A stretch of 64,000 nucleotides of DNA from the NCBI GenBank assembly GCA_044892505.1, contig CM097882.1, positions 15,376,001 to 15,440,000 on the forward strand. Direction: 5' to 3'. Position 1 is the first letter of the stretch; every line of letters starts with the position of its first letter. Shown here piece by piece: positions 2,169 through 34,111 of the stretch. The position numbers and the translations under genes are program-made. Source of the stretch: Schmidtea nova. Lineage: Eukaryota. The notes under the pieces are model-generated. The model saw only the letters and a program-made list of their open reading frames with translations. It searched no databases and was not told the DNA's origin.

Positions 2169-2315
2169 AATTATATTAATTATATATATGATTATTTATA
2201 AATAAATATTGCAATTCTGTCTCAGTTCGTTAAATTGGTGCCCACCGGTCAAACCCCATAAAAAAATAAATAAAACATAAATACCGAAAAAATAAAATTT
2301 TGAAATTTATATAAA

Positions 2316-2377
2316 AACCAACAACCTCCAATCACCGGGGTTACACTTCCTTGGACAGCGATTGAAAGTTGTCAGTT
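2316..2377 (-). ncRNA. Candidate 62-nt hairpin RNA A (also at 12029-12090)
   Basis: Minus strand AACUGACAACUUUCAAUCGCU pairs with GGUGAUUGGAGGUUGUUGGUU over 21 bp including G-U pairs; 20-nt loop; ends in a T5 run. Confidence 0.35.
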
Positions 2378-2504
2378 ATTATTCAACACAGAGTATGGTC
2401 ACTATAAGTATTATATCAAACTAGGCTTTATCCCGTGCTAGCACAGGTAATTCCATGCTAGCACGAATAAATAGTTTGAATACTTAAAGCCTTGTCACTG
2501 CATG

Positions 2505-2633
2505 TATGTGTCTGTAACGCTGATAATAAATCAACTTAATAAATTTATTTTAATAAATTTTAATAAATTTCAATTTTAATCTACTTACTATAGTAAGTAG
2601 ACTGTCTAATGTGGTCGGCGTTACAGACACATA
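2505..2633. mobile_element. 129-bp MITE-like element (also in repeat copy 2)
   Basis: Perfect 16-bp inverted repeat TATGTGTCTGTAACGC / GCGTTACAGACACATA with TA ends. Internal 20-bp palindrome CTACTTACTATAGTAAGTAG at 2581-2600. Confidence 0.55.
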
Positions 2634-2735
2634 GAGTGATAAGAATTATATATATATATATATGAATAAAATTTTAAAGAAAATTTGAACATTATATATA
2701 TTATATCAAATGAATAAAATTTAGAACTAAATAAA

Positions 2736-2797
2736 AACCAACAATTCCCTATCGCTTGGATTACACTTCCCTGAGCAGCGATTAAAAGATGACAGTT
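2736..2797 (-). ncRNA. Candidate 62-nt hairpin RNA B, paralog of A (also at 12445-12506)
   Basis: Diverged copy of hairpin A with 17/21 stem pairs, conserved loop GGAAGUGUAA and a terminal T5 run. Confidence 0.3.
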
Positions 2798-3006
2798 ATT
2801 ATTACGATATGTAGTTTAAAGTATTGTCATTATAAATATTATAACAAATCATTATTATAGTTATTTGTTTAAGTTCTTCGTGTGTGAAAGGTTGTTCTTC
2901 GTTAGTGCGTAATATATTCGGTAATGATTTGTGTACGTGGTTGTTTTGGAAGTGGTAAGGGCTCGAATGAGTCTTCAAATGTTGTAGGGACAATCAGGGT
3001 GAATGC

Positions 3007-3056
<50 letters not shown>

Positions 3057-4069
3057 GTGACAAAGTAGATAATAACAAAAGTAACAGTAAATAAATAACT
3101 AACAATAAATGGTTTTTTTATAATTTTATTAGATTTAACACAAATATAGAACCTTTACTCACGTACGATTCTTCCAAATTCTCCTCTAAAATTCCCGTAA
3201 ATTCTTTTATTGAAAGGACTTCCTCCTGATTAAGTAATCTTCAATTTAATTTGCTAGTTTTTTCTTAAAGTTTTTAATTCACTTTTATTATTAAGGGAAT
3301 CGATTCTATTTTTAATTTCAATTTTTTTGAATTCGCTATAGTAAATTGCCAAGGTATTTACTATAGGGAATAAAAGATTATTGATCACAAGTATTGGGTG
3401 GGGGAAGCGGAAATAACCCACACGTGTTCAATAAATAATAAGATTACAATAATAATAAAAATACCTACATCAAAAAAATATCAATTCAATCACATAACTT
3501 TATTATATCGTTGTAATAATATTAGGACAACAAAATCAATATTGGTGATGTCATTATCAGTTAGACAACAAAATGAAGTAATAAAATAAATCAAAAAAGT
3601 CTTTGGCAAATTGAATAAAATAATAAAATGAATCATTAATTTAAATTATAAGACAAAATTATTATTATAATAGAGTGACAAATAAGATATTATAAAAATG
3701 AATAACCAAGACAATCGTTGTTTTACTTCCAATTTCAACATTACCATATAATATCAGAATTATCATTACGAGTAGGAGGTTCATCATTTCAATTATTATC
3801 AATTTTATTTTGATCAGATGTTTAGCTACTGAAATAAAAATCAATAAAACTTAAAAATACGTAAACATTTATTTAATTCCAATGGTCGTTGTTGCTTCGA
3901 ATTATGTACTTCTGAAATTGTTGATTTTTGGATTGTATTTTGTAATTGTATTTTCTGGAACTATTCTTAATTTCTGTTTTCTTGCTTGCTTCTAAGTTTG
4001 AAAAAGAGAAAAAAAGTGTCGTTTTTAGTAATTTAAACAAACGCCTTTTACAAATATATTGATATTTGA

Positions 4070-4145
<76 letters not shown>

Positions 4146-4711
4146 GATATAATATTTAATTATTTTTTTTAATTTTTACTTGAATTTCTATATATAAAAA
4201 ATATGATACTAATAAATAAATAACGGAGGCACTACAAGATGTATCAATACAATTACTCACCACTTCAATTATTATCATTGTTAATGTTACTAGTATCATT
4301 ATTATAACTATGTTGGTGTCGCTACAATAGAAATAGCTAGTGACAATATTATTATTATTAAAAAATTTATTAAGTATAACAAGTTTGTCTTTTTACAGGT
4401 ACAGATAAGATATTCAGCATGGAATATTACAACAACAATCATATGTTAAAAAACTGCTGCATCTTTTCGTGGATCTGATATTTCATTGGAATTCATTATC
4501 CAGCTTTGCGACATTTTTCAGTTGAATTCAGCTTTCTAAAATATAAATGGTTTCGTCGCAGAATGTTTTATTTCGAAAATTACCTTTAACTACTTGAATT
4601 GCCAGTTCAAAAGAGGGTTAATATTTACATACTTTTATAGTTAAAACAAATGTATTTTACAAAACTTTATAATAATTTAAATTTGTTTAATTAATACTAT
4701 TTAATATTTAT

Positions 4712-7700
4712 TTACACAAAGTTTGGGAGAAACCCATTGGTATGAAAGTACCAAATTCTAGCTGAATGTGCAATATTACTTATTGCACAATCTTTCAATA
4801 GTGTTTTAATTCTTTTCTCTTGGACCCCCATATTTAATAAAAGATCTATTGTTTTAGGTTCGAATGATCCCAAGGAGCCAATTATACAAGTAAACAATTC
4901 AACTTTAAAGTCTGGTTTAACTGCTTGTATCTCAGATCTCAAATTTTCGTATTTTTCCAAGTTTAGTTTGTCACTCAACTCAAAGTTTGAAACAGAATCA
5001 ATTGGACATTTCATGTCTACTAAAAGTATAGTTTTCTTTTCAGTATTTGTTATTAAAAAGTCAACGCGTTCAGTTGAATTCGGTACCAGGGAACATTTGT
5101 GATCGACGACAACAAGTAAATGTGGATTTTTGAGTTCATTTTTGATTTTATCTATACAAGCATTGTGTCTATTTGTAGCTAAAGATTGATTGATTTTACA
5201 TTTTTGTAAAACGTGAAATATTGTTTCATCCTCAGATTTACACCTGCGACACAGACGATTCTCGCCAGTTTTATGTGGTTTGGCAAATGTTGAGAGAGTG
5301 TTTGTTCGTGCACGATGAACGAATTTCCATTCGAATTCTGTCAAATCACTCCGGAAAATAAGCTTATTTACAAGAGGACAGAGTTTAATCGCAGAAACGA
5401 GAAGATTACTATTATTACTCATTTCCCATTTTTCGAGATATGAAACTTGTATTGCAGAATGCAATATTTTTGACAACGCCTTTCTTAGAGTTGGTAATAA
5501 TATGCGTGTGCCAGTTAATGTTGTATTGATACGAATTGAAAGATTTTCTTTGCCAGTTTCAAATAATAGTTTGATGTTGTGAACTCTGGCAAAGTAAGCA
5601 ATAGATGTTCGTAATCGGTAAAAACGAGTTTTACCACCGCTGTGATTTTGTTTACTATCTTTACCATTAACCCATTCTAAACTTTGCTGAAGAGTTGGAT
5701 TTTTAATTCCAAGTCTTGAACTCGTTACAGACAAGAGTGAAAAGGTATTTATCTTTTTCGAGTATTCCCAAGGTGATGTTAGCAAACGATAAAAGTATAC
5801 AATCGTCTGTGTGTGGTACTCATCAAGCAGATCTATGCAACCAGCTCCACCAGTTTCCGTTGCATTATAAAAATAACTAATTTCAGAATAGTTCGGTAAG
5901 TTTAAAATCTTTCTTAAATGGCTTCTCAGCAGACTAGTATTATTAACATTTATTCTTGAATTATTTTGGGGATTAGCTAAAGAACTGGTTTTTATTTCTC
6001 TAGTTCTAAATGGGAAAATTAGCCGAGAATGCAAAAACATTTTATAAGCCTTAAGTTTTTGCCAGCCATGAAGATCAGAATTAGCAATCTTTTTAGTGTC
6101 TTCGATGACTTTGCTGACGATTTCATAGGGACTTTGATCATTATTCTCACCTATTGGTACACCCAAATATTGGTAAAATTCATTTGTCGTAATCTTTTTT
6201 ATGTATTCTTTTTTAACATCAATTTCACTTATAGTTTCAACCTTTGGATATTGAATGTATGCGCATTTCTCAGGACGATATTCAAATCCGATTTCATTAG
6301 CAGTACTGATAGCAATGTCTATCAATGTCTGTAAATCAAATGTATTCGTCGCGATAAGAGCTATGTCATCTGCATAAGCCAACACTTGTACAGGAGAAGT
6401 CCCTATCATAAATGGATTAACATTCGACAGGTTTATAGCTTCAAGAACTGGATTGATAGCTATTGAAAAGAGTATCATTGAAATTGGACAACCTTGCTTG
6501 ACACCTTTCTTTATCAGAATGTCTGGTGTCTGCATTTTATTACAGCAATAAAATGAGCTTGTGTCCGTGTAAATTAGTTTTAATATCTTTATAAAGTTTT
6601 CACCAACGTTCATGTGTCTTAAAAGTGTCCACATGTAGTCGTGTGGAACACTACCGAACGCGTCTTTTATGTCGAGCCAAGCTATAGTCACAGGTGAGGA
6701 TTTACTATATTTCGAATGTTCGACAATCGCAGAAAGAATTGAATTGTGTTCAATACATCCCTCGTACTCCGAACCACCCTTTTGGCCAACGTGTAACAGT
6801 GAGTTATTTCTGATCCATGAACTAAGACGATTTGCTAAGACTGAAGCAAAGACTTTGTAAATAACAGACAATAACGCTATTGGTCTCCAAGATGACACTT
6901 TATGGTATTGACCTTTTTTATCAGGTTTCGGAATTAATATTGTTTTAAAAGACTTCCAACTTGTGGGAATTATTTGAAGTTGAATAATTCTATTAAATAA
7001 AAAAGCCAAAAGTTTACAGTCTGGATCAAATAACAGAAGGTCTTTGTAACGAACATTATCAAGCCCTGGTGATGTGTTGTCAGTTTTCTCAAGATTAGTA
7101 AAGATTTCTCTAGGTGTCATTGGATCTAAAACAAGCATCGCATTAGATGTTTTGGTGAATTTTAAAATGCTTTCCCAACTAGCAGGAAATTCATCTGGAT
7201 GACTGAAGTTGGAAATAATTTCCTGAAAAGACGGAGCCACTGATTCAATTTTATCACCTAATATCCTATAAACAGTTTGTTTCATATTAGTTAAAAACTC
7301 TGTAGAGTTTTTCATTTTCTTAGTTTTTAATGGCTTATTACCTAGATATGGGCTTCGAGTGTGATTTGTGTTAAGATTTTCTAGACGAGGAATGTTTGAA
7401 AGAATACAAGAGATTATTTCATCAACGCTCGAATTTTCAAGTGTATCTAAAAGTCGGTTGATCTTTTCTAATCGTTGTTTTAAGTTCAATTTTAACGAAT
7501 TTACAAGTTTTAACTTTTGACGTCTTTCTTCCATCACATTGTCATTTTTATCGACTATTGGCACAAGAGCATTTATCAGATTGGCAATTTCGTGAAGATT
7601 AATGTTTTCCAAAGGTCTGTCTTGTGCATAATTTCTCATAAAAGCACAAATTAAAATTTTACTAAACAATCCAGAACCTTTTACATCATGAGGACAGTTA

Positions 7701-9307
7701 CGAGTTTTAATAGCACGTCCTGTGCTTTCCCTTATATCATTTATTTTAAGAAATATTTTGTGACAGTAAACTTCTGTCATTATATTCACTTCCTTAATCA
7801 CAGGGCTAATAAAATAATGCTCATCTGTGTTGTAGTCGATTATCATGAGCAAATCATGGACCTTTGGAGGCGAAATGATTGCAAAGATAACATTAGCTTT
7901 CATCATGCACTCAATGTTTAAAAATTCTTTCAAGTATTGAGTGCAATCATCTGAAATTGCAGCACACATGGTTTTATTTAAAAGAATAAAATTATTAGAT
8001 AAGTTTAGATTAAGAAAATATTGACTGATGATTTTCTCACTTATTTTACCATTGATAGAGCTTAGACTAGGAGTAATTTCTATACAAGTTTGAATTTTTA
8101 TTGTATTTAGCAAATCATATATTTTATCATTTTCTAAGATTTTACCAAAAACAAGTTTCTCGAAAAGAACAATGAAAGAGCTAGCAAACAATTGATCATC
8201 ATAAGAGAAAAAAGTCGGGTGAGAAATTCGATGATTAGCTAAGAATTCAATATTACGTCCAAGACAAAATTTATTGAGGTATTCGGTCATCTTTTCTCCA
8301 ATTTCAATTAGTCGATCGTCAATGTTTCGGTAACTAAAATCAAACATGAGACTGTTTTCAAGAGTATTTGAGTAGATGAAGAGGCACCAATCGTTGAATT
8401 TAGGAATGACAGCGATTATATGATCTACTCCTTTAAATTGCTTAAATGTTACATTATCAGTAATGAAAGATTTATTTTGTGCAATTAAATTAAGAGTCAT
8501 TTCAGCAGATAAAACTATGATTGCAGTGTTATTTTGATAATATTTACAAATTATTGATGACACACATGGCTTTTGAGTATTTAGTATTTTGGTTATAGTT
8601 GTATCGTTATTTACTACTCTTTTATTGACAAGTGCTTTTTTAATGTTGATTTTAGACGTGTCAATCTTTAGATTTGCACCGCCTGATGACTTTGAATTAG
8701 AAATCTGTAACTGTTTCTGATATAAATGTACATCTTTCCGTATTTGTTCAATGAATCCAACAGGGAGACTCGTCCAATCTTTACTTATAATCACTGCATA
8801 AGCGCAAGTGAATGGACCGCAGTCAAAATTATTTTTTTGATATTCAAGATGTACATGTGGTTGACGGGAAACAGTAATATTTAATTTGAAGAATTTATTT
8901 AATTCTACGTTTATTCTTAATGCCATTTGTTTGTTAATTGGCTTATGTCGATTAGCATAGATTGGGTCAATAAAATAGGATGATAGAAACTTCTTACTAT
9001 AGACAAATAGGATCCAATGCGAATTGTTGATATTTAGGGGACAAAAAACTGTTTCAGCATTGATTATGGTTTGAGGAATTTTAATAATGTCTTGATGCAT
9101 ATCAGAGCAAAGAATATTTACGACGAAGCATTTTATGTATGCGTGCAGTGGATTGTCAATATTTTGCTCCAAATACCAGTCAATATCATTATCGGAAAAC
9201 CACATTTCAGGATCACGATCGTCAAGGTTTAAATAGTTGGTGTTGATAGTGCTCTCTGCATCAGTCTCATTAGAGGAAATGGCAGAAGATTGAGCTGATG
9301 CAGGCAC
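4712..9307 (-). CDS. Ulp1/SENP protease (one intact plus two degenerate modules), reverse transcriptase, CCHC finger, RLE endonuclease
   Basis: NNSHWILFVY, FIDP and QKNNFDCGPF (H-D-Q-C catalytic set). RT: WRPIALL, WLDIKDAFGSVPH, GVKQGCPISM, LAYADD. CRRCKSEDETIFHVLQKC, RHN, RVDFL, VDMKCP, EKY. Confidence 0.95.
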   Translation of the reverse strand: MPASAQSSAISSNETDAESTINTNYLNLDDRDPEMWFSDNDIDWYLEQNIDNPLHAYIKCFVVNILCSDMHQDIIKIPQTIINAETVFCPLNINNSHWILFVYSKKFLSSYFIDPIYANRHKPINKQMALRINVELNKFFKLNITVSRQPHVHLEYQKNNFDCGPFTCAYAVIISKDWTSLPVGFIEQIRKDVHLYQKQLQISNSKSSGGANLKIDTSKINIKKALVNKRVVNNDTTITKILNTQKPCVSSIICKYYQNNTAIIVLSAEMTLNLIAQNKSFITDNVTFKQFKGVDHIIAVIPKFNDWCLFIYSNTLENSLMFDFSYRNIDDRLIEIGEKMTEYLNKFCLGRNIEFLANHRISHPTFFSYDDQLFASSFIVLFEKLVFGKILENDKIYDLLNTIKIQTCIEITPSLSSINGKISEKIISQYFLNLNLSNNFILLNKTMCAAISDDCTQYLKEFLNIECMMKANVIFAIISPPKVHDLLMIIDYNTDEHYFISPVIKEVNIMTEVYCHKIFLKINDIRESTGRAIKTRNCPHDVKGSGLFSKILICAFMRNYAQDRPLENINLHEIANLINALVPIVDKNDNVMEERRQKLKLVNSLKLNLKQRLEKINRLLDTLENSSVDEIISCILSNIPRLENLNTNHTRSPYLGNKPLKTKKMKNSTEFLTNMKQTVYRILGDKIESVAPSFQEIISNFSHPDEFPASWESILKFTKTSNAMLVLDPMTPREIFTNLEKTDNTSPGLDNVRYKDLLLFDPDCKLLAFLFNRIIQLQIIPTSWKSFKTILIPKPDKKGQYHKVSSWRPIALLSVIYKVFASVLANRLSSWIRNNSLLHVGQKGGSEYEGCIEHNSILSAIVEHSKYSKSSPVTIAWLDIKDAFGSVPHDYMWTLLRHMNVGENFIKILKLIYTDTSSFYCCNKMQTPDILIKKGVKQGCPISMILFSIAINPVLEAINLSNVNPFMIGTSPVQVLAYADDIALIATNTFDLQTLIDIAISTANEIGFEYRPEKCAYIQYPKVETISEIDVKKEYIKKITTNEFYQYLGVPIGENNDQSPYEIVSKVIEDTKKIANSDLHGWQKLKAYKMFLHSRLIFPFRTREIKTSSLANPQNNSRINVNNTSLLRSHLRKILNLPNYSEISYFYNATETGGAGCIDLLDEYHTQTIVYFYRLLTSPWEYSKKINTFSLLSVTSSRLGIKNPTLQQSLEWVNGKDSKQNHSGGKTRFYRLRTSIAYFARVHNIKLLFETGKENLSIRINTTLTGTRILLPTLRKALSKILHSAIQVSYLEKWEMSNNSNLLVSAIKLCPLVNKLIFRSDLTEFEWKFVHRARTNTLSTFAKPHKTGENRLCRRCKSEDETIFHVLQKCKINQSLATNRHNACIDKIKNELKNPHLLVVVDHKCSLVPNSTERVDFLITNTEKKTILLVDMKCPIDSVSNFELSDKLNLEKYENLRSEIQAVKPDFKVELFTCIIGSLGSFEPKTIDLLLNMGVQEKRIKTLLKDCAISNIAHSARIWYFHTNGFLPNFV

Positions 9308-9313
9308 ACATCT

Positions 9314-9994
9314 TCATTTGAGTTTCGGTGGTTGTTTCTTCACTGTTGTTCTGGTATTTGGACCTGATTTCTTTGTTGGTACTTCTAAGGTTTCTTCAAT
9401 ATCCGAGCTAGGAGCATCAGGGATCGGCTTTACAATTGAAATTGCTTCTACTAAACACTTTTCACATACATTGATGTCGACTCCTTCTCTGATTGAAATG
9501 CATTTCTCAAGTTTATTATTGCATTTCATGCAGTTGATTTCCTCAATCAAAACGATTGGTTCGGGCTCACACTGTTTCTCAATCTGTTTTACTGTAACTA
9601 TATCTGGAATAGTTTGTTCGTCATTATTTATTTTGTTTATAGTAAACTTAAGGTCAATGATTATCTTGGAAATTTGTTGGCCCATCTCAGGAGTGCAATA
9701 TTTATTGCTAGATTCATATAATCTGAAATACTGGTTGCCATTTAAATATTTTCTAACATCCCTCAGCAAAAAGTAAATAAATCTTTTAGCTTTGGCTTCA
9801 TGTGTGTCATCAACAATTTTACGTTCATTAATAGATTTCATTAATTTAATTAGCATATTACTTTGTTGATATTTAGTTGGAAAGTTTAAGTCTAAAAGTT
9901 CAAGGAAACTATTTATACATGAAACTATTTCAGGAGAAATGACATTATGAATTTTCTTAATTTTACTAGAAATGTCCCATTGTTTTAATTTCAA
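9314..9994 (-). CDS. Middle segment of the NeSL ORF (CxxC-x17-CxxC finger), in frame with both neighbours
   Basis: CMKC...CEKC. Same frame as 4712-9307 (separated by TGA at 9314-9316) and as 10052-11779 (separated by TAA at 10052-10054). Confidence 0.75.
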   Translation of the reverse strand: MKLKQWDISSKIKKIHNVISPEIVSCINSFLELLDLNFPTKYQQSNMLIKLMKSINERKIVDDTHEAKAKRFIYFLLRDVRKYLNGNQYFRLYESSNKYCTPEMGQQISKIIIDLKFTINKINNDEQTIPDIVTVKQIEKQCEPEPIVLIEEINCMKCNNKLEKCISIREGVDINVCEKCLVEAISIVKPIPDAPSSDIEETLEVPTKKSGPNTRTTVKKQPPKLK

Positions 9995-10051
9995 AAGTTT
10001 CTCTTGACAACTAGTGTAAAAATAAGATGAATTTGGTATCTTTGGAACAAT

Positions 10052-11779
10052 TTAATTGGCCCAGTTTTCAAAGTCATCAATTGACAGAGATACGATATCG
10101 TCAATGGAACAAAGTGAATTAATTAACAAGCAATTGCAAATATAATTCTTCACGTAATCAGAATAAATTTGATTTTCCGACATTTTAAGGGATCCAGTCA
10201 AATTCAAGAAATTTAGATGAAAAACTATCTCTACAATCTTAAAATCAAAATCATTTTTCTCAAGGATTGATTTCAATTCAATATCATCTTTGCACATGTT
10301 TACCAAATCAAAAAGTCCAAGATTAAACATTATGTCCGGGGTCTTATTTGAAGATATTGGTTTATTATGAGATTGGTAAAATTTCCCACCTTCATAAAAT
10401 ATATTGTCTGGAAAAGAGTTATTAAGCTTTAAAGACTCAATCAATTTTACAATCGATAATGATCTAGTCGCAGAATTTTCAACAAAATCTATCTCTTTAA
10501 GAGAGGGAAAGGATAAGTACATGGATTTTATCTGACTTCTCGAAAGTTCGGAGGAATTTGAAGCTGTCAAGGTTTTGCTATCGTTAAATTTCGCTTTTGC
10601 ATTAGTTAAATCTAACATGACAAATTCACCATTAACGTACTTAATATTCGATTTTATCAAATAATTTGGTATTTGTTGTTTAATTTTGAGAGAATTAATG
10701 ATGTTATTAATTCTAATTTCCCTAAATTTCTCATTTTTGATAGAAACAGTCTCCGAAAGTTCAGTAGAGAGATTAAATAAAAACTTTCTTATAGACATTG
10801 GAGCTGGAATATATTCAGAAAGAACTGGATAAGATTTGATTATGTTGTGATCAATTAATGTTATGTTATTTTTAAAAATTTCGGCTATGGGTGAAGAAAT
10901 ATTATTGGGTTTATTGTTTATTTTACAAAAAACACAAATATTTAAATTTCTAAAAAAGAAATGATCAAAATCTTTAATATTGAGGGGATTTTCATTTAAT
11001 TTCTCGCTACTAAGAAATTGATTAATTTTAATATATTTATTTTTAGAATCCTTAAGTTTAATCAATGGGAGGAGATCTGGGAATTTACTAAAAATTTGCT
11101 GTCGTTCACGTTTCGTTAGAATACGGACCAGAATTTTAAAATTAAGACTATTACTTTTACGGTTGACAGATTCAGTTGAGGGTTTATTAAATTTTACTAT
11201 TTTTTTATTTTTACTAACAGAAATTTCCAAATTTTGAAAAGGGGTAGAGTTAGAATTAAATAATTGATCATTAATTAAATTAATTTCAGCAGATTTTAGA
11301 AAGTTTTTATTATTAAAAGATTTATTTACATTTAGAGATTTATCTGACAATTCATTAGAAAAATTCGAAATAAAACAATCTACCTTTTCAGCCATATTGC
11401 GAAATGATTCCTCCAACGAGTCCAAGCGCTTGCTAAACGAAGAAGGAGAAAAATCCACAGGTTGTTGAATAGAAATGTCATTTTCTCCAGTTGATTTAGA
11501 AATTTCTTTAGAAAAACATCCAATATTTTCAGCCATATTGAGAGATGAAGTTTCAATCGAAGCCAAATGCTTATTGACAGAAGGGTAATCCACATTTTGC
11601 TGAACACAATTTTCTTCTTTATCTGCACAAGATTTATACAAATATTCCAAAAGAGATTTAGATATCGTAATTTGATTATTCAATAATTCAGATAATAATC
11701 GATCTGCAGAATTAGGCAATTTGCTCTTCGCGACTGAGTGATCACCAGCAGTGTGCGCATGTTGAGGCATGCCAGTCAT
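10052..11779 (-). CDS. N-terminal segment of the NeSL ORF, no recognised domain
   Basis: 575-aa open frame with an internal repeat (LASIETSSLNMAENIGCF / LDSLEESFRNMAEKVDCF); in frame with downstream segments. Confidence 0.7.
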   Translation of the reverse strand: MTGMPQHAHTAGDHSVAKSKLPNSADRLLSELLNNQITISKSLLEYLYKSCADKEENCVQQNVDYPSVNKHLASIETSSLNMAENIGCFSKEISKSTGENDISIQQPVDFSPSSFSKRLDSLEESFRNMAEKVDCFISNFSNELSDKSLNVNKSFNNKNFLKSAEINLINDQLFNSNSTPFQNLEISVSKNKKIVKFNKPSTESVNRKSNSLNFKILVRILTKRERQQIFSKFPDLLPLIKLKDSKNKYIKINQFLSSEKLNENPLNIKDFDHFFFRNLNICVFCKINNKPNNISSPIAEIFKNNITLIDHNIIKSYPVLSEYIPAPMSIRKFLFNLSTELSETVSIKNEKFREIRINNIINSLKIKQQIPNYLIKSNIKYVNGEFVMLDLTNAKAKFNDSKTLTASNSSELSRSQIKSMYLSFPSLKEIDFVENSATRSLSIVKLIESLKLNNSFPDNIFYEGGKFYQSHNKPISSNKTPDIMFNLGLFDLVNMCKDDIELKSILEKNDFDFKIVEIVFHLNFLNLTGSLKMSENQIYSDYVKNYICNCLLINSLCSIDDIVSLSIDDFENWAN

Positions 11780-11870
11780 AGTTGCGTGATGATTTTTAAT
11801 TAAGAAATTTTAATTTAAGAAATTTTCTAAGAACTTTTCGATATAATTTATGTTTCTTTATATGGACTAA

Positions 11871-12715
11871 AAAATGGACTAAAATTATATTAATTATATA
11901 TATGATTATTTATAAATAAATATTGCAATTCTGTCTCAGTTCGTTAAATTGGTGCCCACCGGTCAAACCCCATAAAAAAAAAATAAAACATAAATACCGA
12001 AAAAATAAAATTTTGAAATTTATATAAAAACCAACAACCTCCAATCACCGGGGTTACACTTCCTTGGACAGCGATTGAAAGTTGTCAGTTATTATTCAAC
12101 ACAGAGTATGGTCACTATAAGTATTATATCAAACTAGGCTTTATCCCGTGCTAGCACAGGTAATTCCATGCTAGCACGAATAAATAGTTTGAATACTTAA
12201 AGCCTTGTCACTGCATGTATGTGTCTGTAACGCTGATAATAAATCAACTTAATAAATTTATTTTAATAAATTTTAATAAATTTCAATTTTAATCTACTTA
12301 CTATAGTAAGTAGACTGTCTAATGTGGTCGGCGTTACAGACACATAGAGTGATAAGAATTATATATATATATGAATAAAATTTTAAAGAAAATTTGAACA
12401 TTATATATATTATATCAAATGAATAAAATTTAGAACTAAATAAAAACCAACAATTCCCTATCGCTTGGATTACACTTCCCTGAGCAGCGATTAAAAGATG
12501 ACAGTTATTATTACGATATGTAGTTTAAAGTATTGTCATTATAAATATTATAACAAATCATTATTATAGTTATTTGTTTAAGTTCTTCGTGTGTGAAAGG
12601 TTGTTCTTCGTTAGTGCGTAATATATTCGGTAATGATTTGTGTACGTGGTTGTTTTGGAAGTGGTAAGGGCTCGAATGAGTCTTCAAATGTTGTAGGGAC
12701 AATCAGGGTGAATGC

Positions 12716-12765
<50 letters not shown>

Positions 12766-13778
12766 GTGACAAAGTAGATAATAACAAAAGTAACAGTAAA
12801 TAAATAACTAACAATAAATGGTTTTTTTATAATTTTATTAGATTTAACACAAATATAGAACCTTTACTCACGTACGATTCTTCCAAATTCTCCTCTAAAA
12901 TTCCCGTAAATTCTTTTATTGAAAGGACTTCCTCCTGATTAAGTAATCTTCAATTTAATTTGCTAGTTTTTTCTTAAAGTTTTTAATTCACTTTTATTAT
13001 TAAGGGAATCGATTCTATTTTTAATTTCAATTTTTTTGAATTCGCTATAGTAAATTGCCAAGGTATTTACTATAGGGAATAAAAGATTATTGATCACAAG
13101 TATTGGGTGGGGGAAGCGGAAATAACCCACACGTGTTCAATAAATAATAAGATTACAATAATAATAAAAATACCTACATCAAAAAAATATCAATTCAATC
13201 ACATAACTTTATTATATCGTTGTAATAATATTAGGACAACAAAATCAATATTGGTGATGTCATTATCAGTTAGACAACAAAATGAAGTAATAAAATAAAT
13301 CAAAAAAGTCTTTGGCAAATTGAATAAAATAATAAAATGAATCATTAATTTAAATTATAAGACAAAATTATTATTATAATAGAGTGACAAATAAGATATT
13401 ATAAAAATGAATAACCAAGACAATCGTTGTTTTACTTCCAATTTCAACATTACCATATAATATCAGAATTATCATTACGAGTAGGAGGTTCATCATTTCA
13501 ATTATTATCAATTTTATTTTGATCAGATGTTTAGCTACTGAAATAAAAATCAATAAAACTTAAAAATACGTAAACATTTATTTAATTCCAATGGTCGTTG
13601 TTGCTTCGAATTATGTACTTCTGAAATTGTTGATTTTTGGATTGTATTTTGTAATTGTATTTTCTGGAACTATTCTTAATTTCTGTTTTCTTGCTTGCTT
13701 CTAAGTTTGAAAAAGAGAAAAAAAGTGTCGTTTTTAGTAATTTAAACAAACGCCTTTTACAAATATATTGATATTTGA

Positions 13779-13830
<52 letters not shown>

Positions 13831-14046
13831 GATATAATATTTAATTATTTTTTTTAATTTTTACTTGAATTTCTATATATAAAAAATATGATACTAATAA
13901 ATAAATAACGGAGGCACTACAAGATGTATCAATACAATTACTCACCACTTCAATTATTATCATTGTTAATGTTACTAGTATCATTATTATAACTATGTTG
14001 GTGTCGCTACAATAGAAATAGCTAGTGACAATATTATTATTATTAA
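11871..14046. repeat. ~2.2-kb direct repeat, copy 2
   Basis: Matches 2157-4360, from AAAATGGACTAAAATT to GACAATATTATTATTATTAA. Confidence 0.95.
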
Positions 14047-15129
14047 TATTATTATTGTTATTATTAGTATAAGTATCGTTGCAAAAATAACTCCGATTTT
14101 TACAAATGACACTTTATTTGTATCATTTTACACTCCTAATACGTAAACCACACAATACAAGTCAATAAAGCAACAATAAAACTTTTATTATTCAACTGAA
14201 CTATTTATCTGTAAAGAATTTTAATTTCACATCCTTTCCTCGTCATTAAGATTTGTTCAATTGTATAGTTGCTTTTTTTTCAAAATTCAAATATTTACAC
14301 AGAGTTAGTGATGATATTCCCAAAGCAGTTTAAACGAACTAAAGTAAAACCGTATGTCATTTATTTTGCAAACATTTGTTCAACAGGGAAATCATTTTCT
14401 ATGTTGTGAAATTATTTTAAAGGCTAATTGACTAGGAACAATAAATATTTACAAAGCAACAGAGTTATATTTTCATAATAACATCAAGGATTTATGGATA
14501 ATCAAAAATAACCATTGAATCCGAAAACTACATCCGTATCAATCGCCAAATTATTGTCAACGATATGTCAATTTAATAACGTATCATATTCGAAAATTAA
14601 CCCCAAATCCGAAAAACTATTTCCGTATCAAACGCTATTTCCAACAGCCCGAAACTAATTATTTATTATATTATTATTACTGTTTTTATTGTTATTGTTT
14701 TTATTATTATTATTATTGTTAATTTACAAAATTAAAATAAAATTAACTTACAAGAATTGTATAAAATGATAAATAATAAACAAATTAAATAACGAGATGC
14801 GCCGCGGATTATATCTGCGGCGGCAACTTCCAACTGCCAGCATCAATTGAAATAAAATATTTTGATTGAGCAATAATAAAGTTATTAAAAATGAGAATAA
14901 ATATCAGTTAGATTAACAAATCGACTATTTAGTCAGATTGTCGTTTTCGATATTAGATGGCAATTAAATGCCATTATTTATTAATAAATTTAATTTTTAT
15001 TGTAGGTCTGATTTGATAAGATCAATTAACTATATACAGAACAGTTAAAATTATTATTATTATTAACATGGAATATCAGTATTGTTATTGTCATTGTTAT
15101 TACATTTTTATGTATTATGTATTATGTAT

Positions 15130-15134
15130 TATGA

Positions 15135-15206
<72 letters not shown>

Positions 15207-15228
15207 TTTATTTTTATTATTATTATTG
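15130..15228. repeat. (TTA)n microsatellite truncating the tandem array
   Basis: Directly visible. Array similarity stops at its edge. Confidence 0.9.
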
Positions 15229-17003
15229 AATCGAGCAAAAACCTTTTGGAAATCATTTTTATTTCTATCAAACAATGTTTTTATCAAAGAAGCGAGCAAT
15301 TCGAGTTTGTAATCACTAAATTGTTGTTTGTAATGAACACCACGTAAAAGAATTGAAAGAGGCTCTCTGTGATTTGTTTGGCCATTGGTTTGAGATCCAG
15401 AAAACCAGCGCGCTTCAGGGATCTTGATGTCGTTATTGAGCTTGAATGTCAAGCTTTGCTCTGAAGACAAACTTCAATACGATAAGATGAGTCCGACAAT
15501 ATTCTGCTCAGCGATCGGCAAACTATCCAAAGAAAAGCTTTCAGTTCCAGATCGCTGTGGAATATAGAATTTAGATGCTATCATTTGAAATGTTGCATGA
15601 ATGTCATCATATTGTATTGGAAATAGAACAAATCCTTTCTCGTTTAATGTCAATAATGGCTCATTTCAGTCTAATATTTCGCCTCTCCCAACTTCCCAAA
15701 ATTTCATCGATAATTCCGTAACGCTGAGCCCACGTTGATTTGGATAATACCTTTTATTGCATCTCAAACAGTTCAATTGATCACAATATCCACAATGAAA
15801 TATCACATTATCGTTTTTAACAACTTTCATCATTGGAAAATTTAACGTTAGGCATTTTCTAGTTATTTGGTCAGGTATACATTCTATAAACATTGATAAC
15901 ACCTTTTTCGAAAAGAAGCAATTTGCAGAAGGCATAATATTCTCACACTTCATACATTTATATTATTATACATCGTATTCTTTTGAAATTCAAACCATCC
16001 GAATATCCCGCCATTCCAATTTCCAAATTGGAACGAATTAACAAAACCGAATAAATCAAAATTCAATTCCCAATTTAAAATTAAAAACCATTCAAAAAAT
16101 TCCTAAAAAATCCAAATAAGTTGGATTATTAAAACAATCCTAGAATATTAGGGGAAAGCACATGCGCACCCAGACGCTGAACAGATTATCACGTCACAAA
16201 CAGACGCGTATCACCATTATTCCAGAAAATGCGCACACAGACGCGACAACTATAAAATTTCAAATCGCGCACACAGACGCGTATATAAAAGATAGCATTC
16301 GCGCATACAGTCGCGAATAAATAGCCAAAGTTTGTTCAGGCAAACTTTGGCTGAAACATTTCCCCCCCCCCCTTGATCCTTTCTAGCGGATCAACCGACC
16401 TATTCATCTCTGGGGGAAGGCAACTCTCCTGATTCTTAACTTTATTTTTCCACTTCGGCTTATACTTATTTTTGTCATCAAATTTTTCTTCAACCAATAA
16501 TCTTCTTCTAATCTCCTGGACACTCATTCTCAGGCCTATGCATATTTTTAGTTCCAGATTTACCGTTGCCAATTTATCGTTAAGACAATTTAAATTTTCC
16601 ATCTCCACTGATAACGTTTCTACAGTTTCAGCCACAATCTTTAATTTTACTTCTAACTCCTTAATTTCACTTTTATATTCTATTTCTGTCGTTTTTATTT
16701 TACTTTCAAGATCTTCTATTTTTGAATGAAGTTGTGTTACTAAATCCGACTTATCAGCAAGAGATTCATTACCAACAGTTGAACCGTGATCAACCTTGTC
16801 AAATGATCCCATTTTATTGCTACTAATTGCATTTTTACCTTTTATTATAAGATAGGCTGACTGTTCACCACCTACCCCCTCTGCAATTATTACTGGACAA
16901 TTTATAAGTTCGGCATTTCCGATAACCTTTTCATCCTTTTATAGATTTTTTTCAAGATTGTTAACTTTTCTCTTGCCACTTTTATCAACATTGGAATTTT
17001 CAA

Positions 17004-18450
17004 CTATTCCTTGCTCAATACTTTTACCATTAAAGGAATTCTCTCCAATATTTTCCAAATTTTACAATTCTCTTCGATATCGTTAATATTTTCCACAATT
17101 TTCTCATCGACAATGCAATTCTCTTCAGTATTTTCTTCATTTATTGATTGCTCATCTTCCACAACCATTGTCGATTCAATTTCCGTCATTACTTTTTGCA
17201 CTAATTCGTTTGAAGTAGTGTTCATTCCATCCTCACTTGCAATACCAACTGACCCAGAGTTGTCAACCATTTCACCAGACACACCACCATTTACTGCGCT
17301 ATCCTCACCTCGACCTGAATTCAAATTTCCATCACCAGTCCGAACCTCACCAAGAACTTCTTTCTGAGCTTTAGGTGCAAAACTCTCGTTATACTCCTTG
17401 CTACACTGTTCTCCTCGATAAGTCACCATTGCCGTGTTCTCATTTTGATTCTTATATCTTAATGTCTTTGATCGTTCTCTACCAAGATCTACATTTGGAT
17501 TTTTATCCACAAAATTTGTAACCCTCTTCTTATTTTCAATCTCTTTTCTATTTCCTGGCTGTCGCTCTCCAAACAGTATATTCAAAGCTTTGCTATGCCT
17601 ATCAGCTTCCTTTTTGACCCATTCCGCTAAAGTTTGAACATTTGTCTCCTTCCCTGACTCACAGTCGCGTACCCACTGTGTTAACATGGTTTCCGGTAAC
17701 TTTTTCAACAGTTGGTAATACAGGATTCCATCGTTTAACTCCCCTTCTCTCTTTTGGTCCTTGAACGCCAAGATTATATTTCCCACTAGCTCGTCAAACC
17801 GTTCTAGGTCTTCCAATACATTGAGCCTCAATGGAAAGAACCTCTGTACCGCGTCCAGCATCATTAAATATGTACGTTCTAGTCCACCATATCTCTCATC
17901 CAATAATTTTATTGCCGCTTCAAAAGCCTGAGAGCCATATCCGATATAAGCAAATAATTGCAGAGGTTTCCCTTCCAAATACTGTCTTAAGTACAAGTAT
18001 TTCTTTTCGCTCGTTTCATCCGTGTCCTCGATGCAAGCTCTCACAATTGCTCGCCATCCAGCATACTCTATTACATTCCACATTAAATACCGGAAGCTGT
18101 AAGGGTTTCAATCGCACAAACAATCTCGGCCTGTCCTTAGCGCTTTCGTTTAGAACAGACTGTTCCCGACTTTTGTTAGCTTCCACTGAAAACCTCTCTT
18201 CCCTTTTTGTGAAAGCTAGTTCCCCTATTCTGTCAAATTCCATTTCCAATTTATCTAAATCCATCTGAATCTCCTTCAACTCACTCTCTCTTTTTAACTC
18301 CCGAGCCTGCCATTTCAATTGTTCTAATTCTGCCATCACTTTTCATATTTATCTTCGTAGGCTTCTCTCCTGGCTTCTTGCTCCGCGGTATCCACAACAT
18401 CCGTTAGTGCTTTATTTCGAAGACGCTCTAATGTTATTTTTAATCCTGTT
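17004..18450 (-). pseudogene. BEL/Pao-type Gag (DUF1759-like), frameshifted (copy B at 20943-22389)
   Basis: LKPLQLPVFN(G)NVIEYAGWRAIVRACIE, KKYLYLRQYLEGKP, AAIKLLDERYG, QLLKKLP, TLAEWVKKE. No pol follows. Confidence 0.8.
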
Positions 18451-18494
18451 CACCTTTTGTAACCTGCCTCAAACTCGGCATCGGTTACGGGACT

Positions 18495-18725
18495 TCCCCC
18501 ATTCAACCGCAACAATAAAAATATGTTTGAACCCATTTGTATATTATAGTCAGACAATTTACAGCCATCTCGCAATTGTTTCCCATCAAATATTAAACGT
18601 TGATGACTCGGTGGGATCCCCTCTCTCTCTTGTACCTTAAACTTGACACTCTCTATTAAATCCGCCAAGTTTACTTCAATTGCAATTGTTTTTCCCAATA
18701 ATGTCTTCACAAAAATTTGTGACAT
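18495..18725 (-). CDS. Ubiquitin domain inside the polyprotein (copy B at 22434-22664)
   Basis: [18 protein letters not shown]...[17 protein letters not shown]...LSDYNIQ...LLLRLNGG. Confidence 0.95.
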
Positions 18726-18849
18726 TCGTTTTAACTTCCCTACCTCACGGTACCCACATTCCTTCCCAATACAACACATAGCCAGGTCACTACCTTCATC
18801 CACTGCCTCAATCCCTCGACCATGGTGAATATCAAACTTTAATTCAATC

Positions 18850-19608
18850 GTGTCATGTAAATTATCCCCAAAGGTCAAACCCGAGAAACCCGCGATAATC
18901 ACACCTACCTCCCTTAACCTTTTATCATTTATCCCTATGTTTTTCCTTACAATACCCCTATCCCTATTCAAAAATTCTTTAAATATAGCGGGGGGGGAAT
19001 GTATCAACCCAGGACAAAAATTTACAAATCAGAAAATAATGTTCAAAAATATTACAAAAACACAGATTAAGAAAAGCTACCTTGTTCTGGCTGGATAGCC
19101 AGAACAGTATTGCCAATGTTCCGAGAAGTAAGTGGTCCCCCGATGGGAACCACACTCTGCTTCCATTTTTGAATCGAGCAATAACCTTTTGGAAATCATT
19201 TTTATTTCTATCAAAAAATGTTTTTATCAAAGAAGCGAGCAACTCGAGTTTGTGGTCACTAAATTGTTGATTGTAATGAACACCACGTAAAAGAATTGAA
19301 AGAGGCTCTCTGTGATTTGTTTGGCCATTGGTTTGAGATCCAGAAAACCAGCGCGCTTCAGGGATCTTGATGTCGTTATTGAGCTTGAATGTCAAGCTTT
19401 GCTCTGAAGACAAACTTCAATACGATAAGATGAGTCCGACAATATTCTGCTCAGCGATCGGCAAACTATCCAAAGAAAAGCTTTCAGTTCCAGATCGCTG
19501 TGGAATATAGAATTTAGATGCTATCATTTGAAATGTTGCATGAATGTCATCATATTGTATTGGAAATAGAACAAATCCTTTCTCGTTTAATGTCAATAAT
19601 GGCTCATT
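18850..19608 (-). pseudogene. Ribonucleotide reductase small-subunit (R2)-like domain, iron ligands degenerate
   Basis: EPLLTLNEKGFVLFPIQYDDI, DSLPIAEQNIVGLILSY, DIKIPEARWFSGSQ, GTLAILFWL and KEFL...IGIN are collinear with R2 motifs EPLL...RFVIFPIEYHDI, ESLKPEERYFISHVLAF, EVQITEARCFYGFQ, GSFASIFWL and QEFL...IGMN. Confidence 0.7.
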
Positions 19609-20274
19609 TCAGTCTAATATTTCGCCTCTCCCAACTTCCCAAAATTTCATCGATAATTCTGTAACGCTGAGCCCACGTTGATTTGGATAATATCTTTTAT
19701 TGCATCTCAAACAGTTCAATTGATCACAATATCCACAATGAAATATCACATTATCGTTTTTAACAACTTTCATCATTGGAAAATTTAACGTTAGGCATTT
19801 TCTAGTTATTTGGTCAGGTATACATTCTATAAACATTGATAACACCTTTTTCGAAAAGAAGCAATTTGCAGAAGGCATAATATTCTCACACTTCATACAT
19901 TTATATTATTATACATCGTATTCTTTTAAATTTCAAACCATCCGAATATCCCGCCATTCCAATTTCCAAATTGGAACGAATTAACAAAACCGAATAAATC
20001 AAAATTCAATTCCCAATTTAAAATTAAAAACCATTCAAAAAATTCCTAAAAAATCCAAATAAGTTGGATTATTAAAACAATCCTAGAATATTAGGGGAAA
20101 GCACATGCGCACCCAGACGCTGAACAGATTATCACGTCACAAACAGACGCGTATCACCATTATTCCAGAAAATGCGCACACAGACGCGACAACTATAAAA
20201 TTTCAAATCGCGCACACAGACGCGTATATAAAAGATAGCATTCGCGCATACAGTCGCGAATAAATAGCCAAAGT

Positions 20275-23200
20275 TTGTTCAGGCAAACTTTGGCTGAAAC
20301 ATTTCCCCCCCTTGATCCTTTCTAGCGGATCAACCGACCTATTCATCTCTGGGGGAAGGCAACTCTCCTGATTCTTAACTTTATTTTTCCACTTCGGCTT
20401 ATACTTATTTTTGTCATCAAATTTTTCTTCAACCAATAATCTTCTTCTAATCTCCTGGACACTCATTCTCAGGCCTATGCATATTTTTAGTTCCAGATTT
20501 ACCGTTGCCAATTTATCGTTAAGACAATTTAAATTTTCCATCTCCACTGATAACGTTTCTACAGTTTCAGCCACAATCTTTAATTTTACTTCTAACTCCT
20601 TAATTTCACTTTTATATTCTATTTCTGTCGTTTTTATTTTACTTTCAAGATCTTCTATTTTTGAATGAAGTTGTGTTACTAAATCCGACTTATCAGCAAG
20701 AGATTCATTACCAACAGTTGAACCGTGATCAACCTTGTCAAATGATCCCATTTTATTGCTACTAATTGCATTTTTACCTTTTATTATAAGATAGGCTGAC
20801 TGTTCACCACCTACCCCCTCTGCAATTATTACTGGACAATTTATAAGTTCGGCATTTCCGATAACCTTTTCATCCTTTTATAGATTTTTTTCAAGATTGT
20901 TAACTTTTCTCTTGCCACTTTTATCAACATTGGAATTTTCAACTATTCCTTGCTCAATACTTTTACCATTAAAGGAATTCTCTCCAATATTTTCCAAATT
21001 TTACAATTCTCTTCGATATCGTTAATATTTTCCACAATTTTCTCATCGACAATGCAATTCTCTTCAGTATTTTCTTCATTTATTGATTGCTCATCTTCCA
21101 CAACCATTGTCGATTCAATTTCCGTCATTACTTTTTGCACTAATTCGTTTGAAGTAGTGTTCATTCCATCCTCACTTGCAATACCAACTGACCCAGAGTT
21201 GTCAACCATTTCACCAGACACACCACCATTTACTGCGCTATCCTCACCTCGACCTGAATTCAAATTTCCATCACCAGTCCGAACCTCACCAAGAACTTCT
21301 TTCTGAGCTTTAGGTGCAAAACTCTCGTTATACTCCTTGCTACACTGTTCTCCTCGATAAGTCACCATTGCCGTGTTCTCATTTTGATTCTTATATCTTA
21401 ATGTCTTTGATCGTTCTCTACCAAGATCTACATTTGGATTTTTATCCACAAAATTTGTAACCCTCTTCTTATTTTCAATCTCTTTTCTATTTCCTGGCTG
21501 TCGCTCTCCAAACAGTATATTCAAAGCTTTGCTATGCCTATCAGCTTCCTTTTTGACCCATTCCGCTAAAGTTTGAACATTTGTCTCCTTCCCTGACTCA
21601 CAGTCGCGTACCCACTGTGTTAACATGGTTTCCGGTAACTTTCTCAACAGTTGGTAATACAGGATTCCATCGTTTAACTCCCCTTCTCTCTTTTGGTCCT
21701 TGAACGCCAAGATTATATTTCCCACTAGCTCGTCAAACCGTTCTAGGTCTTCCAATACATTGAGCCTCAATGGAAAGAACCTCTGTACCGCGTCCAGCAT
21801 CATTAAATATGTACGTTCTAGTCCACCATATCTCTCATCCAATAATTTTATTGCCGCTTCAAAAGCCTGAGAGCCATATCCGATATAAGCAAATAATTGC
21901 AGAGGTTTCCCTTCCAAATACTGTCTTAAGTACAAGTATTTCTTTTCGCTCGTTTCATCCGTGTCCTCGATGCAAGCTCTCACAATTGCTCGCCATCCAG
22001 CATACTCTATTACATTCCACATTAAATACCGGAAGCTGTAAGGGTTTCAATCGCACAAACAATCTCGGCCTGTCCTTAGCGCTTTCGTTTAGAACAGACT
22101 GTTCCCGACTTTTGTTAGCTTCCACTGAAAACCTCTCTTCCCTTTTTGTGAAAGCTAGTTCCCCTATTCTGTCAAATTCCATTTCCAATTTATCTAAATC
22201 CATCTGAATCTCCTTCAACTCACTCTCTCTTTTTAACTCCCGAGCCTGCCATTTCAATTGTTCTAATTCTGCCATCACTTTTCATATTTATCTTCGTAGG
22301 CTTCTCTCCTGGCTTCTTGCTCCGCGGTATCCACAACATCCGTTAGTGCTTTATTTCGAAGACGCTCTAATGTTATTTTTAATCCTGTTCACCTTTTGTA
22401 ACCTGCCTCAAACTCGGCATCGGTTACGGGACTTCCCCCATTCAACCGCAACAATAAAAATATGTTTGAACCCATTTGTATATTATAGTCAGACAATTTA
22501 CAGCCATCTCGCAATTGTTTCCCATCAAATATTAAACGTTGATGACTCGGTGGGATCCCCTCTCTCTCTTGTACCTTAAACTTGACACTCTCTATTAAAT
22601 CCGCCAAGTTTACTTCAATTGCAATTGTTTTTCCCAATAATGTCTTCACAAAAATTTGTGACATTCGTTTTAACTTCCCTACCTCACGGTACCCACATTC
22701 CTTCCCAATACAACACATAGCCAGGTCACTACCTTCATCCACTGCCTCAATCCCTCGACCATGGTGAATATCAAACTTTAATTCAATCGTGTCATGTAAA
22801 TTATCCCCAAAGGTCAAACCCGAGAAACCCGCGATAATCACACCTACCTCCCTTAACCTTTTATCATTTATCCCTATGTTTTTCCTTACAATACCCCTAT
22901 CCCTATTCAAAAATTCTTTAAATATAGCGGGGGGGGAATGTATCAACCCAGGACAAAAATTTACAAATCAGAAAATAATGTTCAAAAATATTACAAAAAC
23001 ACAGATTAAGAAAAGCTACCTTGTTCTGGCTGGATAGCCAGAACAGTATTGCCAATGTTCCGAGAAGTAAGTGGTCCCCCGATGGGAACCACACTCTGCT
23101 TCCATTTTTGAATCGAGCAATAACCTTTTGGAAATCATTTTAATTTCTATCAAAAAATGTTTTTATCAAAGAAGCGAGCAACTCGAGTTTGTGGTCACTA

Positions 23201-23815
23201 AATTGTTGATTGTAATGAACACCACGTAAAAGAATTGAAAGAGGCTCTCTGTGATTTGTTTGGCCATTGGTTTGAGATCCAGAAAACCAGCGCGCTTCAG
23301 GGATCTTGATGTCGTTATTGAGCTTGATTGTCAAGCTTTGCTCTGAAGACAAACTTCAATACGATAAGATGAGTTCGACAATACACTACTCAGCGATCGG
23401 CAAACTATCCAGAGAATAGGTTTCAGTTCCAGATCGCTGTGGAATATAGAATTTAGATGCTATCATTTGAAATGTTGCATGAATGTCATCACATTGTATT
23501 GGAAATAGAACAAATCCTTTCTCGTTTAATGTCAATAATGGCTCATTTCAGTCTAATATTTCGCCTCTCCCAACTTCCCAAAATCTCTTCGATAATTCTG
23601 TAATGTTGAGCCCACGTTGATTTGGATAATATCTTTTATTGCATCTCAAACAGTTCAATTGATCACAATATTCACAATGAAATATCACATTATCGTTTTC
23701 AACAACTTTCATCATTGGACAATTTAATGTTAAGCATTTATTTTTCGAAGAGAAGCAATTTGCAGAAGGCATAATATTCTCACATAATACATTTATATTC
23801 ACTCATCGTATTCTT
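20275..23815 (-). pseudogene. Reconstructed polyprotein, copy B
   Basis: Same lesions as copy A. Its IBR segment (23548-23802) reads KCLTLNCPMM...HCEYCDQLNCLRC, i.e. C-x4-C...CxxC-x4-CxxC. Confidence 0.7.
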
Positions 23816-24523
23816 TTGAAATCAAATTTAATTATCGCAAATTGAATTCCAAATTTAAAAAATATCCCAAAATTTCAATTACAAAATTGATTATTCAAAC
23901 CATCCGAATATCCCGCCATTCCAATTTACAAATCGGAACGAATTAACAAAACCGAATAAATCAAAATTCAATTCCCAATTTAAAATTAAAAACCATTCAA
24001 AAAATTCCTAAAAAATCCAAATAAATTGGATTATTAAAACAATCCTAGAATATTAGGGAAAAGCACATGCGCACCCAGACGCTGAACAGATTATCACGTC
24101 GCACACAGACGCGTATCACCATTATTCCAGAAAATGCGCACACAGACGCGACAATTATAAAATTTCAAATCGCGCACACAGACGCGTATATAAAAGATAG
24201 CATTCGCGCATACAGTTGCGAATAAATAGCCAAAGTTTGTTCAGGCAAACNNNNNNNNNNNNNNNNNNNNNNNNNNNNNNNNNNNNNNNNNNNNNNNNNN
24301 NNNNNNNNNNNNNNNNNNNNNNNNNNNNNNNNNNNNNNNNNNNNNNNNNNNNNNNNNNNNNNNNNNNNNNNNNNNNNNNNNNNNNNNNNNNNNNNNNNNN
24401 NNNNNNNNNNNNNNNNNNNNNNNNNNNNNNNNNNNNNNNNNNNNNNNNNNNNNNNNNNNNNNNNNNNNNNNNNNNNNNNNNNNNNNNNNNNNNNNNNNNN
24501 NNNNNNNNNNNNNNNNNNNNNNN

Positions 24524-33976: not shown

Positions 33977-34111
33977 TCTTTCTGCTCTGTCATTCCAATT
34001 TTCTTTCTTTACAACCCCATTGACGAAATGTATGCAATAGAGTTCCTCATGTTTTTTTCAGTTTCCACATCATGAATTGCATAATCATTAATTGATTCTC
34101 TGGTTTCTGCA

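Follow-up and report, generated by a model that had tools for sequence, protein, structure and literature searches.

A decayed, pol-less BEL/Pao copy in Schmidtea nova and the probable ubiquitin-bridged Gag frame of its clade

Introduction

What kind of element is repeated, with a unit of almost 4 kb, in a 64,000-nucleotide stretch of Schmidtea nova DNA (GenBank assembly GCA_044892505.1, contig CM097882.1, positions 15,376,001 to 15,440,000, forward strand; hereafter the window)? The original prediction took the small open reading frames (ORFs) of each unit to be fragments of a chimeric polyprotein, with an IBR-like cysteine cluster, a piece resembling ribonucleotide reductase R2, ubiquitin, a BEL/Pao Gag and a coiled coil. 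It suggested a tandemly amplified, virus-derived or domesticated Gag fusion family without pol or long terminal repeats (LTRs). Our analysis points to a retrotransposon: the locus is probably a decayed, locally duplicated, pol-less BEL/Pao copy, from a clade in which a frame started in the LTR reaches Gag through a ubiquitin that is likely to be cleaved.

Results

Comparison of the window with itself located the repeat at 15222-24250, with the period of ~3.94 kb that had been predicted. Read on the minus strand, 15227-24250 has the order LTR-internal-LTR-internal-LTR, i.e., two units between three LTRs (Table 1), and the two units have ~99% identity, with 34 mismatches over 3890 aligned positions. 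The LTRs run from TG to CA, and a polypurine tract (PPT) stands before both the 3' LTR (16358->15227) and the middle LTR (20301->19170). An 18-nt primer binding site (PBS), 4 bases past the LTR, is complementary to the 3' end of the genome's tRNA-Met(CAT). The claim that the unit has no LTR is overturned by these three LTRs, the PBS and the PPT. Both units share the same two PBS mismatches, which fits decay prior to local duplication. The 3' pattern of tRNA-Met(CAT) has 1031 exact matches genome-wide, and tRNA-Met(CAT) genes, whose tRNA fits the PBS, are repeated in tandem every 458 bp from G000:C1 510.09 Mb onward (L060).

Table 1. Features of the repeated element in the window.
Feature	Position	Strand	Details
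(AAT)n microsatellite	15050..15226		adjoins LTR end; likely insertion target
3' LTR, with IBR-like and R2-like pieces	15227..16358	-	1132 bp, TG...CA, 10 mismatches/1132 to middle LTR
PPT	16359..16374	-	sequence
Acidic linker and coiled-coil tail	16412..17434	-	slip near 17057, stop near 16940
BEL/Pao Gag: N-terminal helices and capsid (DUF1759)	17435..18494	-	stop near 18450, slips near 18339 and 18080
Ubiquitin domain ending LRLNGG, joined directly to Gag	18495..18725	-	Pfam, sequence
Leader between PBS and ubiquitin, with hairpin	18726..19147	-	slip near 18997
PBS, in-frame peptide GSRVWF (relatives: GSRAWF)	19148..19165	-	tRNA-Met(CAT) 3' end, two mismatches
Middle LTR, common to both units	19170..20301	-	1132 bp; AATAAA near 19206
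Captured host R2-paralog piece, ~136 codons, within LTR, Gag frame	19221..19627	-	88.7% over 408 bp to L053
IBR-like cysteine cluster, probably from host RBR ligase mRNA	19639..19806	-	39% over 56 amino acids to one host IBR locus
Second internal unit: PPT, tail, Gag, ubiquitin, leader, PBS	20302..23104	-	same lesions; self-comparison
5' LTR of array	23109..24250	-	33 mismatches and several indels vs middle LTR

On the minus strand, Pfam identifies ubiquitin (PF00240, E 2.6e-21), ending in LNGG, and DUF1759 (E 5.2e-8), and the upstream frame, with stops read as X, matches human RRM2B (E 3.8e-10). The predicted domain order, including the R2 likeness and the DUF1759-type Gag, is present. The small ORFs are indeed pieces of one broken frame, interrupted at four points by in-frame stops, of which two fall in the LTR piece, one after ubiquitin and one in the tail, and by four slips that were located in unit 1 against three relatives. 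The same four slips recur in unit 2, and these common lesions bear out the claim that decay preceded amplification. An intact contiguous copy had been proposed as a target of search, and in a natural copy (L004) these domains follow one another in that order in one frame broken by just one stop; the contiguity is therefore not due to chance. The window copy lacks pol, as stated earlier: zinc knuckles, protease (PR), reverse transcriptase (RT), RNase H (RH) and integrase (IN) are absent. The IBR label is poorly supported. Stop-free versions of the cysteine cluster in L004 gave no Pfam hit at E 0.01, and what stands is a weak tblastn match (E 1e-6, 39% identity over 56 amino acids) to the best of 27 host IBR loci, among which the parent gene was not located.

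In the position taken by zinc knuckles and pol in autonomous relatives, the window copy has the acidic, coiled-coil tail; its match to these relatives ends at 17435 and resumes at 16411. Searches found no recognised origin for the tail. The same tail occurs in a second pol-less family (L034:1-3963, against window 16412-17434), and the tail-bearing derivatives stem from two autonomous families whose Gags are only ~37% alike; modules therefore move between families. In P0141, a protein from outside this genome, a CFAP58 coiled coil occupies the place of the tail.

The claim of tandem amplification stands for the two-unit local duplication and not for the family, which is otherwise dispersed, with copies of 80-100% identity on three chromosomes (DNA search, 40 of 3107 candidates scored). 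An AAT or TTA repeat terminates 21 of the 35 loci that have the window-type LTR; solo LTRs with repeat on either side account for 15, and 4 continue into a PBS. The window copy adjoins a microsatellite, so its own target-site duplication is uninformative. A 5-bp target-site duplication was found in 21 of the 25 complete relatives with placeable ends, 9 of these 21 lying outside AAT/ATT/AT repeats, and relatives include near-identical LTR pairs (99-100%). Insertions are strongly associated with (AAT)n, (ATT)n and (AT)n, for which target preference and survival bias are both possible. Evenly spaced head-to-tail arrays of whole elements were seen at several other places (e.g., G000:C1:156.70-156.72 Mb), and tandems like that of the window are common in this clade.

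Autonomous partners are present in the same genome. A search with the Pao RNase H region (150 of 675 candidates scored) gave 16 long-frame loci, and all 8 that were scanned have a single frame, 2098-2572 residues long and opening within the LTR, for ubiquitin, DUF1759, RT, Peptidase_A17 and DUF5641. With the capsid of the window type as query, 150 of 1897 candidates were scored and 8 further pol-bearing relatives came to light. These have 83-93% DNA identity to the window ubiquitin-Gag, and 85-93% for the Gag segment. They include two frames of 2422 residues (L262 and L263), the former being the autonomous partner of the window type, and L269, which combines pol with an R2-type LTR. An aspartic protease is encoded by the autonomous types and by one pol-less type; the window type has none.

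Across five families, a single frame opens within the 5' LTR and runs through host fragments, the PBS and ubiquitin with its LxGG end into Gag. At 30 distinct PBS sites, in loci that were not picked for long frames, at least 118 stop-free codons precede the PBS in the Gag frame in 20 cases, compared with 1 and 1 in the other two sense frames. The corresponding count for the Gag frame is 42 of 44 PBS sites in loci that were picked for long frames. In a protease-bearing, pol-less sister family, 80 of 150 scored hits (1458 candidates) lie in frames of at least 1500 codons, a length sufficient for a start at or above the PBS. Additionally, AATAAA lies 20-60 nt before the PBS in 23/31 LTR types vs 5/31 control windows, which suggests a long R region and a very short U5. 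The leader hairpin (19060-19175, folding z -3.0) is common to all cargo types; an R2 likeness that appeared to continue past the PBS falls in this stretch and was taken as chance.

At the join between ubiquitin and Gag, L73, G75 and G76 do not vary in 10 ubiquitin-Gag sequences whose identity falls to 33%, and R42, I44, K48, R72 and R74 do. Among 68 own-genome copies, 67 have LxGG at 73-76 (the remaining copy is offset by an indel), none has proline right after it, and 45 have no Met at or beside the start of ubiquitin. In the structure model, a short loose linker connects a ubiquitin fold to the Gag helices, and a fold search with the ubiquitin-Gag model returned ubiquitin as the sole match type. 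The capsid model of a natural copy has a predicted local distance difference test (pLDDT) value of 94.6, its best matches being PNMA2 and copia capsids (E 2e-3 to 0.17). With the ubiquitin fold, LxGG at the junction and no following proline, the sequences have the features of a ubiquitin fusion, and processing by deubiquitinases is likely.

A different reading of the same frame is that it is kept open against nonsense-mediated decay or upstream-ORF repression, with ubiquitin acting as an uncleaved folding or degradation tag, or with the element's own protease trimming the leader. R74 is replaced in all own-genome copies, and K48 and the fold are largely retained, as might be expected of a tag. 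However, a retained tag needs no invariant GG exactly at the junction, and GG is kept across 33%-identical Gags and lost in an upstream polyubiquitin remnant (in place in only 15 of 56). Trimming would be within reach of the types that encode an aspartic protease, yet the window type retains LNGG without one. This reading seems to us unlikely, and a cleaved ubiquitin remains the one we prefer.

The material upstream of the PBS is of host origin. The R2 piece derives from a divergent, intron-bearing host R2 paralog (L053). This paralog (L053:1354-2300), which has introns and lacks metal ligands, is a possible pseudo-enzyme subunit. The canonical host R2 gene (L051) was rejected as the source, with no DNA match and 24.5% protein identity. 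The captured piece does not have the full di-iron bundle, being ~136 residues long, and its first Asp and the Glu of ExxH are replaced, as in the host paralog. In the sister LTRs L054, L055, L056 and L058, exons 1 and 2 of the paralog are joined and the 50-nt intron has been removed; in the window copy the IBR-like piece overwrites the part from exon 1. Another copy carries a DCC1 piece in which two host exons are joined across a 6.5-kb GT-AG intron. The cargo is thus host mRNA in origin, spliced in these two cases, and the IBR/R2 part of the window is an exchangeable host-mRNA cassette inside the LTR, as sister copies carry other genes there.

Ten Pfam families and R2 were seen upstream of the PBS in the Gag frame. 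LTR cargo elsewhere includes CCT, HECT, DCC1, ABC-transporter, SAM decarboxylase, FKBP, prenyltransferase, VPS35, ThiF/E1-like and FHA pieces, and leader cargo includes Hsp70, Hsp90 and a polyubiquitin junction. The best solved match of the FKBP-type cargo is FKBP6 (PDB 3b7x, E 1.4e-15); the names UBA1 and Shutdown, which go beyond the profile and PDB matches, are our presumed reading of such pieces. The parent gene of the FKBP6-like cargo was not found in the genome, and the candidate parent L229 proved to be part of a broken element that a DNA transposon has interrupted. The cargo sits in the LTR and leader and does not replace internal ORFs, gag and pol being intact in relatives. The capture junctions are overwritten by later recombination, which blurs any microsimilarity at switch points.

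Selection differs between the two parts of the frame. The ratio of nonsynonymous to synonymous substitution rates (dN/dS) is 0.14-0.37 for the capsid (11 pairs), 0.56-1.32 for Hsp70 cargo (7 pairs) and 0.59-0.77 for R2 cargo against the host (4 pairs, which leave out the window's own R2 piece). The capsid is under purifying selection and the cargo is nearly neutral.

The cargo might itself be useful, if a cargo-ubiquitin chimera or host-like RNA acted as a decoy, a dominant negative against defence or a small-RNA shield. FKBP6/Shutdown-like and Hsp90 pieces acting against the production of PIWI-interacting RNA (piRNA) would be an example, since FKBP6 and Hsp90 are linked to piRNA biogenesis. 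Few cargos are as amplified as the FKBP6-like piece, with 513 candidates, of which 150 were scored and mostly resemble element copies. Several families share pieces of Hsp90, Hsp70 and CCT, which also occur in the outside proteins P0127 and P0325, and cargo dN/dS is often somewhat below 1. Against this, the pieces are partial, freely exchanged between sister copies and drawn from many unrelated housekeeping genes, their drift is near neutral, and chance alone would favour capture of the mRNAs that are abundant in dividing cells. We consider useful cargo improbable, and prefer a leader that merely has to stay open.

Relatives outside this genome show the same arrangement. A Gag query against a representative protein library returned 1108 representatives; among the best 150, 4 have ubiquitin directly before Gag and 2 more begin with a ubiquitin tail. 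Among the best 120 RT matches, 7 carry ubiquitin, 3 of them with the PBS peptide GSRAW. Some of the outside ubiquitin-bearing proteins carry cargo of their own (kinesin and Sec23/24, a TRAF zinc finger, Hsp90). In the RT tree of 124 rows, one clade (Shimodaira-Hasegawa-like approximate likelihood ratio test, SH-aLRT, 99) unites 7 outside ubiquitin rows, 4 own rows and 3 N-terminally incomplete rows, and no ubiquitin row falls outside it. Other searches gave little: a ubiquitin+Gag protein query was swamped by polyubiquitins, a Gag-only query among long proteins had no match, and the sole matches of a ubiquitin-Gag atlas search were DUF1759 clusters under 0.9.

Discussion

The window copy is dead, while its clade is active. 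The features described above are probably explained as follows. The transcript would begin early in the LTR, most of which would be R region, and its first AUG would open the Gag(-Pol) frame. Host deubiquitinases would cut at LxGG, giving Gag a fixed N-terminus whatever lies upstream. Ubiquitin would then be a cleavable spacer and the leader a tolerant capture zone that need only stay open. With cleavage at this point the leader would be free of sequence constraint save openness, and in-frame captures would therefore accumulate: RT template switches onto co-packaged host mRNAs would survive when in frame, and the cargo would be copied into both LTRs at the next round. The window copy may have been moved in trans by a pol-bearing relative and decayed in place, and the decayed copy may then have been doubled via unequal exchange between its own LTRs.

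Several points weigh against this explanation. The start of transcription, the translation of the leader and the cleavage are steps that we infer. AATAAA is missing from the 20-60 nt before the PBS in 8/31 LTR types. Stop avoidance is weak singly, as simulations gave a chance of no stop of 0.03-0.51 per segment; the copies are related, hence the counts are not independent events; and the Pfam scans were mostly of the Gag frame, so out-of-frame cargo could escape. Residue 74 of ubiquitin is N, C or K, never R, in the own-genome copies, and a residue other than R may reduce cleavage by some enzymes. In the window type, translation might start at a Met that immediately precedes ubiquitin. The dN/dS values of the Gag N-terminal helices are noisy (0.2-2.4), and those of ubiquitin range from 0.09 to 0.88. 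Finally, the RT tree comes from a quick search without bootstrap.

A bolder version would combine a translated LTR capture cassette and a cleavable ubiquitin throughout the clade with release of a host-fragment-ubiquitin chimera by each new copy and selection of some of these chimeras (FKBP6/Shutdown-like, Hsp90, UBA1, HECT) as counter-defence against piRNA or protein-quality control; we hold this to be rather unlikely. The original suggestion of a tandemly amplified polyprotein gene, domesticated or of viral origin, is hardly credible: it would suit the long open frames and the purifying selection seen in the capsid, but the LTRs, PBS, PPT, target duplications, solo LTRs, 99-100% LTR pairs and pol-bearing relatives in the same genome, as well as cargo that matches the genome's own genes, all oppose it.

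Gag-only elements and frames that begin in an LTR are known. TR-GAG elements of plants are non-autonomous and Gag-only with LTRs, and in yeast Ty1 GAG starts in the LTR, the tRNA-iMet PBS lies within the frame and the LTR part of the frame is short. Unlike the present elements, neither is known to have ubiquitin or host cargo. The architecture was predicted to be undescribed, and we found no description of a ubiquitin-Gag BEL/Pao element or of in-frame LTR host cargo in the open literature, with Repbase reports and subscription journals outside this scope. As in other BEL/Pao elements (Belpaoviridae; PMC3118150), the Gag is of DUF1759 type, the LTRs are TG..CA, and the autonomous relatives have a single Gag-Pol frame with PR-RT-RH(Peptidase_A17)-IN and DUF5641. 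That survey covers a Flow superfamily with two planarian families and cites a Repbase report on a planarian BEL family. The word ubiquitin is absent from its main text, and the present elements differ from those surveyed in that ubiquitin precedes Gag and the LTR contains host fragments.

Capture of host sequence has parallels in other systems. LTR-mediated retrocopies of animals, and maize Bs1 (PMC5131818), likewise contain partial, spliced pieces of several genes and are re-amplified. However, they are rare and replace part of the internal ORFs, whereas the present elements carry in-frame cargo in both LTRs and the leader, keep Gag/pol and exist in hundreds of young copies. In cytopathogenic pestiviruses (PMC8310069, PMC13517609), captured host mRNA is likewise followed by ubiquitin, which host hydrolases cut, giving the next protein its proper N-terminus; CP Rit (PMC8310069) is a precedent for ubiquitin as a processing signal behind captured mRNA. 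Those insertions are sporadic, dead-end variants of an RNA virus, whereas here ubiquitin is a fixed, clade-wide feature of a retrotransposon and its cleavage is predicted. Burro giant gypsy elements of planarians (PMC6431247) also have host-like domains, including one of ubiquitin/SUMO-like type, in a long polyprotein. They belong to a gypsy lineage with an N-terminal Gag and whole, conserved accessory domains downstream, not fragments within the LTR.

If our explanation is correct, a retroelement would have a simple route for sampling the host transcriptome while sparing its own proteins; at this step transducing retroviruses are usually crippled. The hundreds of young, promoter-linked, in-frame gene chimeras would then be an unusually large natural exon-shuffling experiment, and the cargo list may record the mRNAs packaged in cells where the element is active. 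For annotation, such LTRs will yield hundreds of false FKBP6, CCT, HECT, DCC1 or R2 paralogs.

Other elements in the window

At 2157-14046, direct repeats of 2.2 kb (98.7%) flank minus-strand frames for a Ulp1-type protease, a non-LTR reverse transcriptase and zf-RVT, and the whole reads as a non-LTR element with long terminal direct repeats. Broken frames of a protein-primed DNA polymerase B, Polinton-like, lie at 48916-52904. Gypsy-type elements were seen at 31521-35356 and at 52720-59214, the latter with ~1-kb LTRs (98.7%) and an internal 98-bp tandem.

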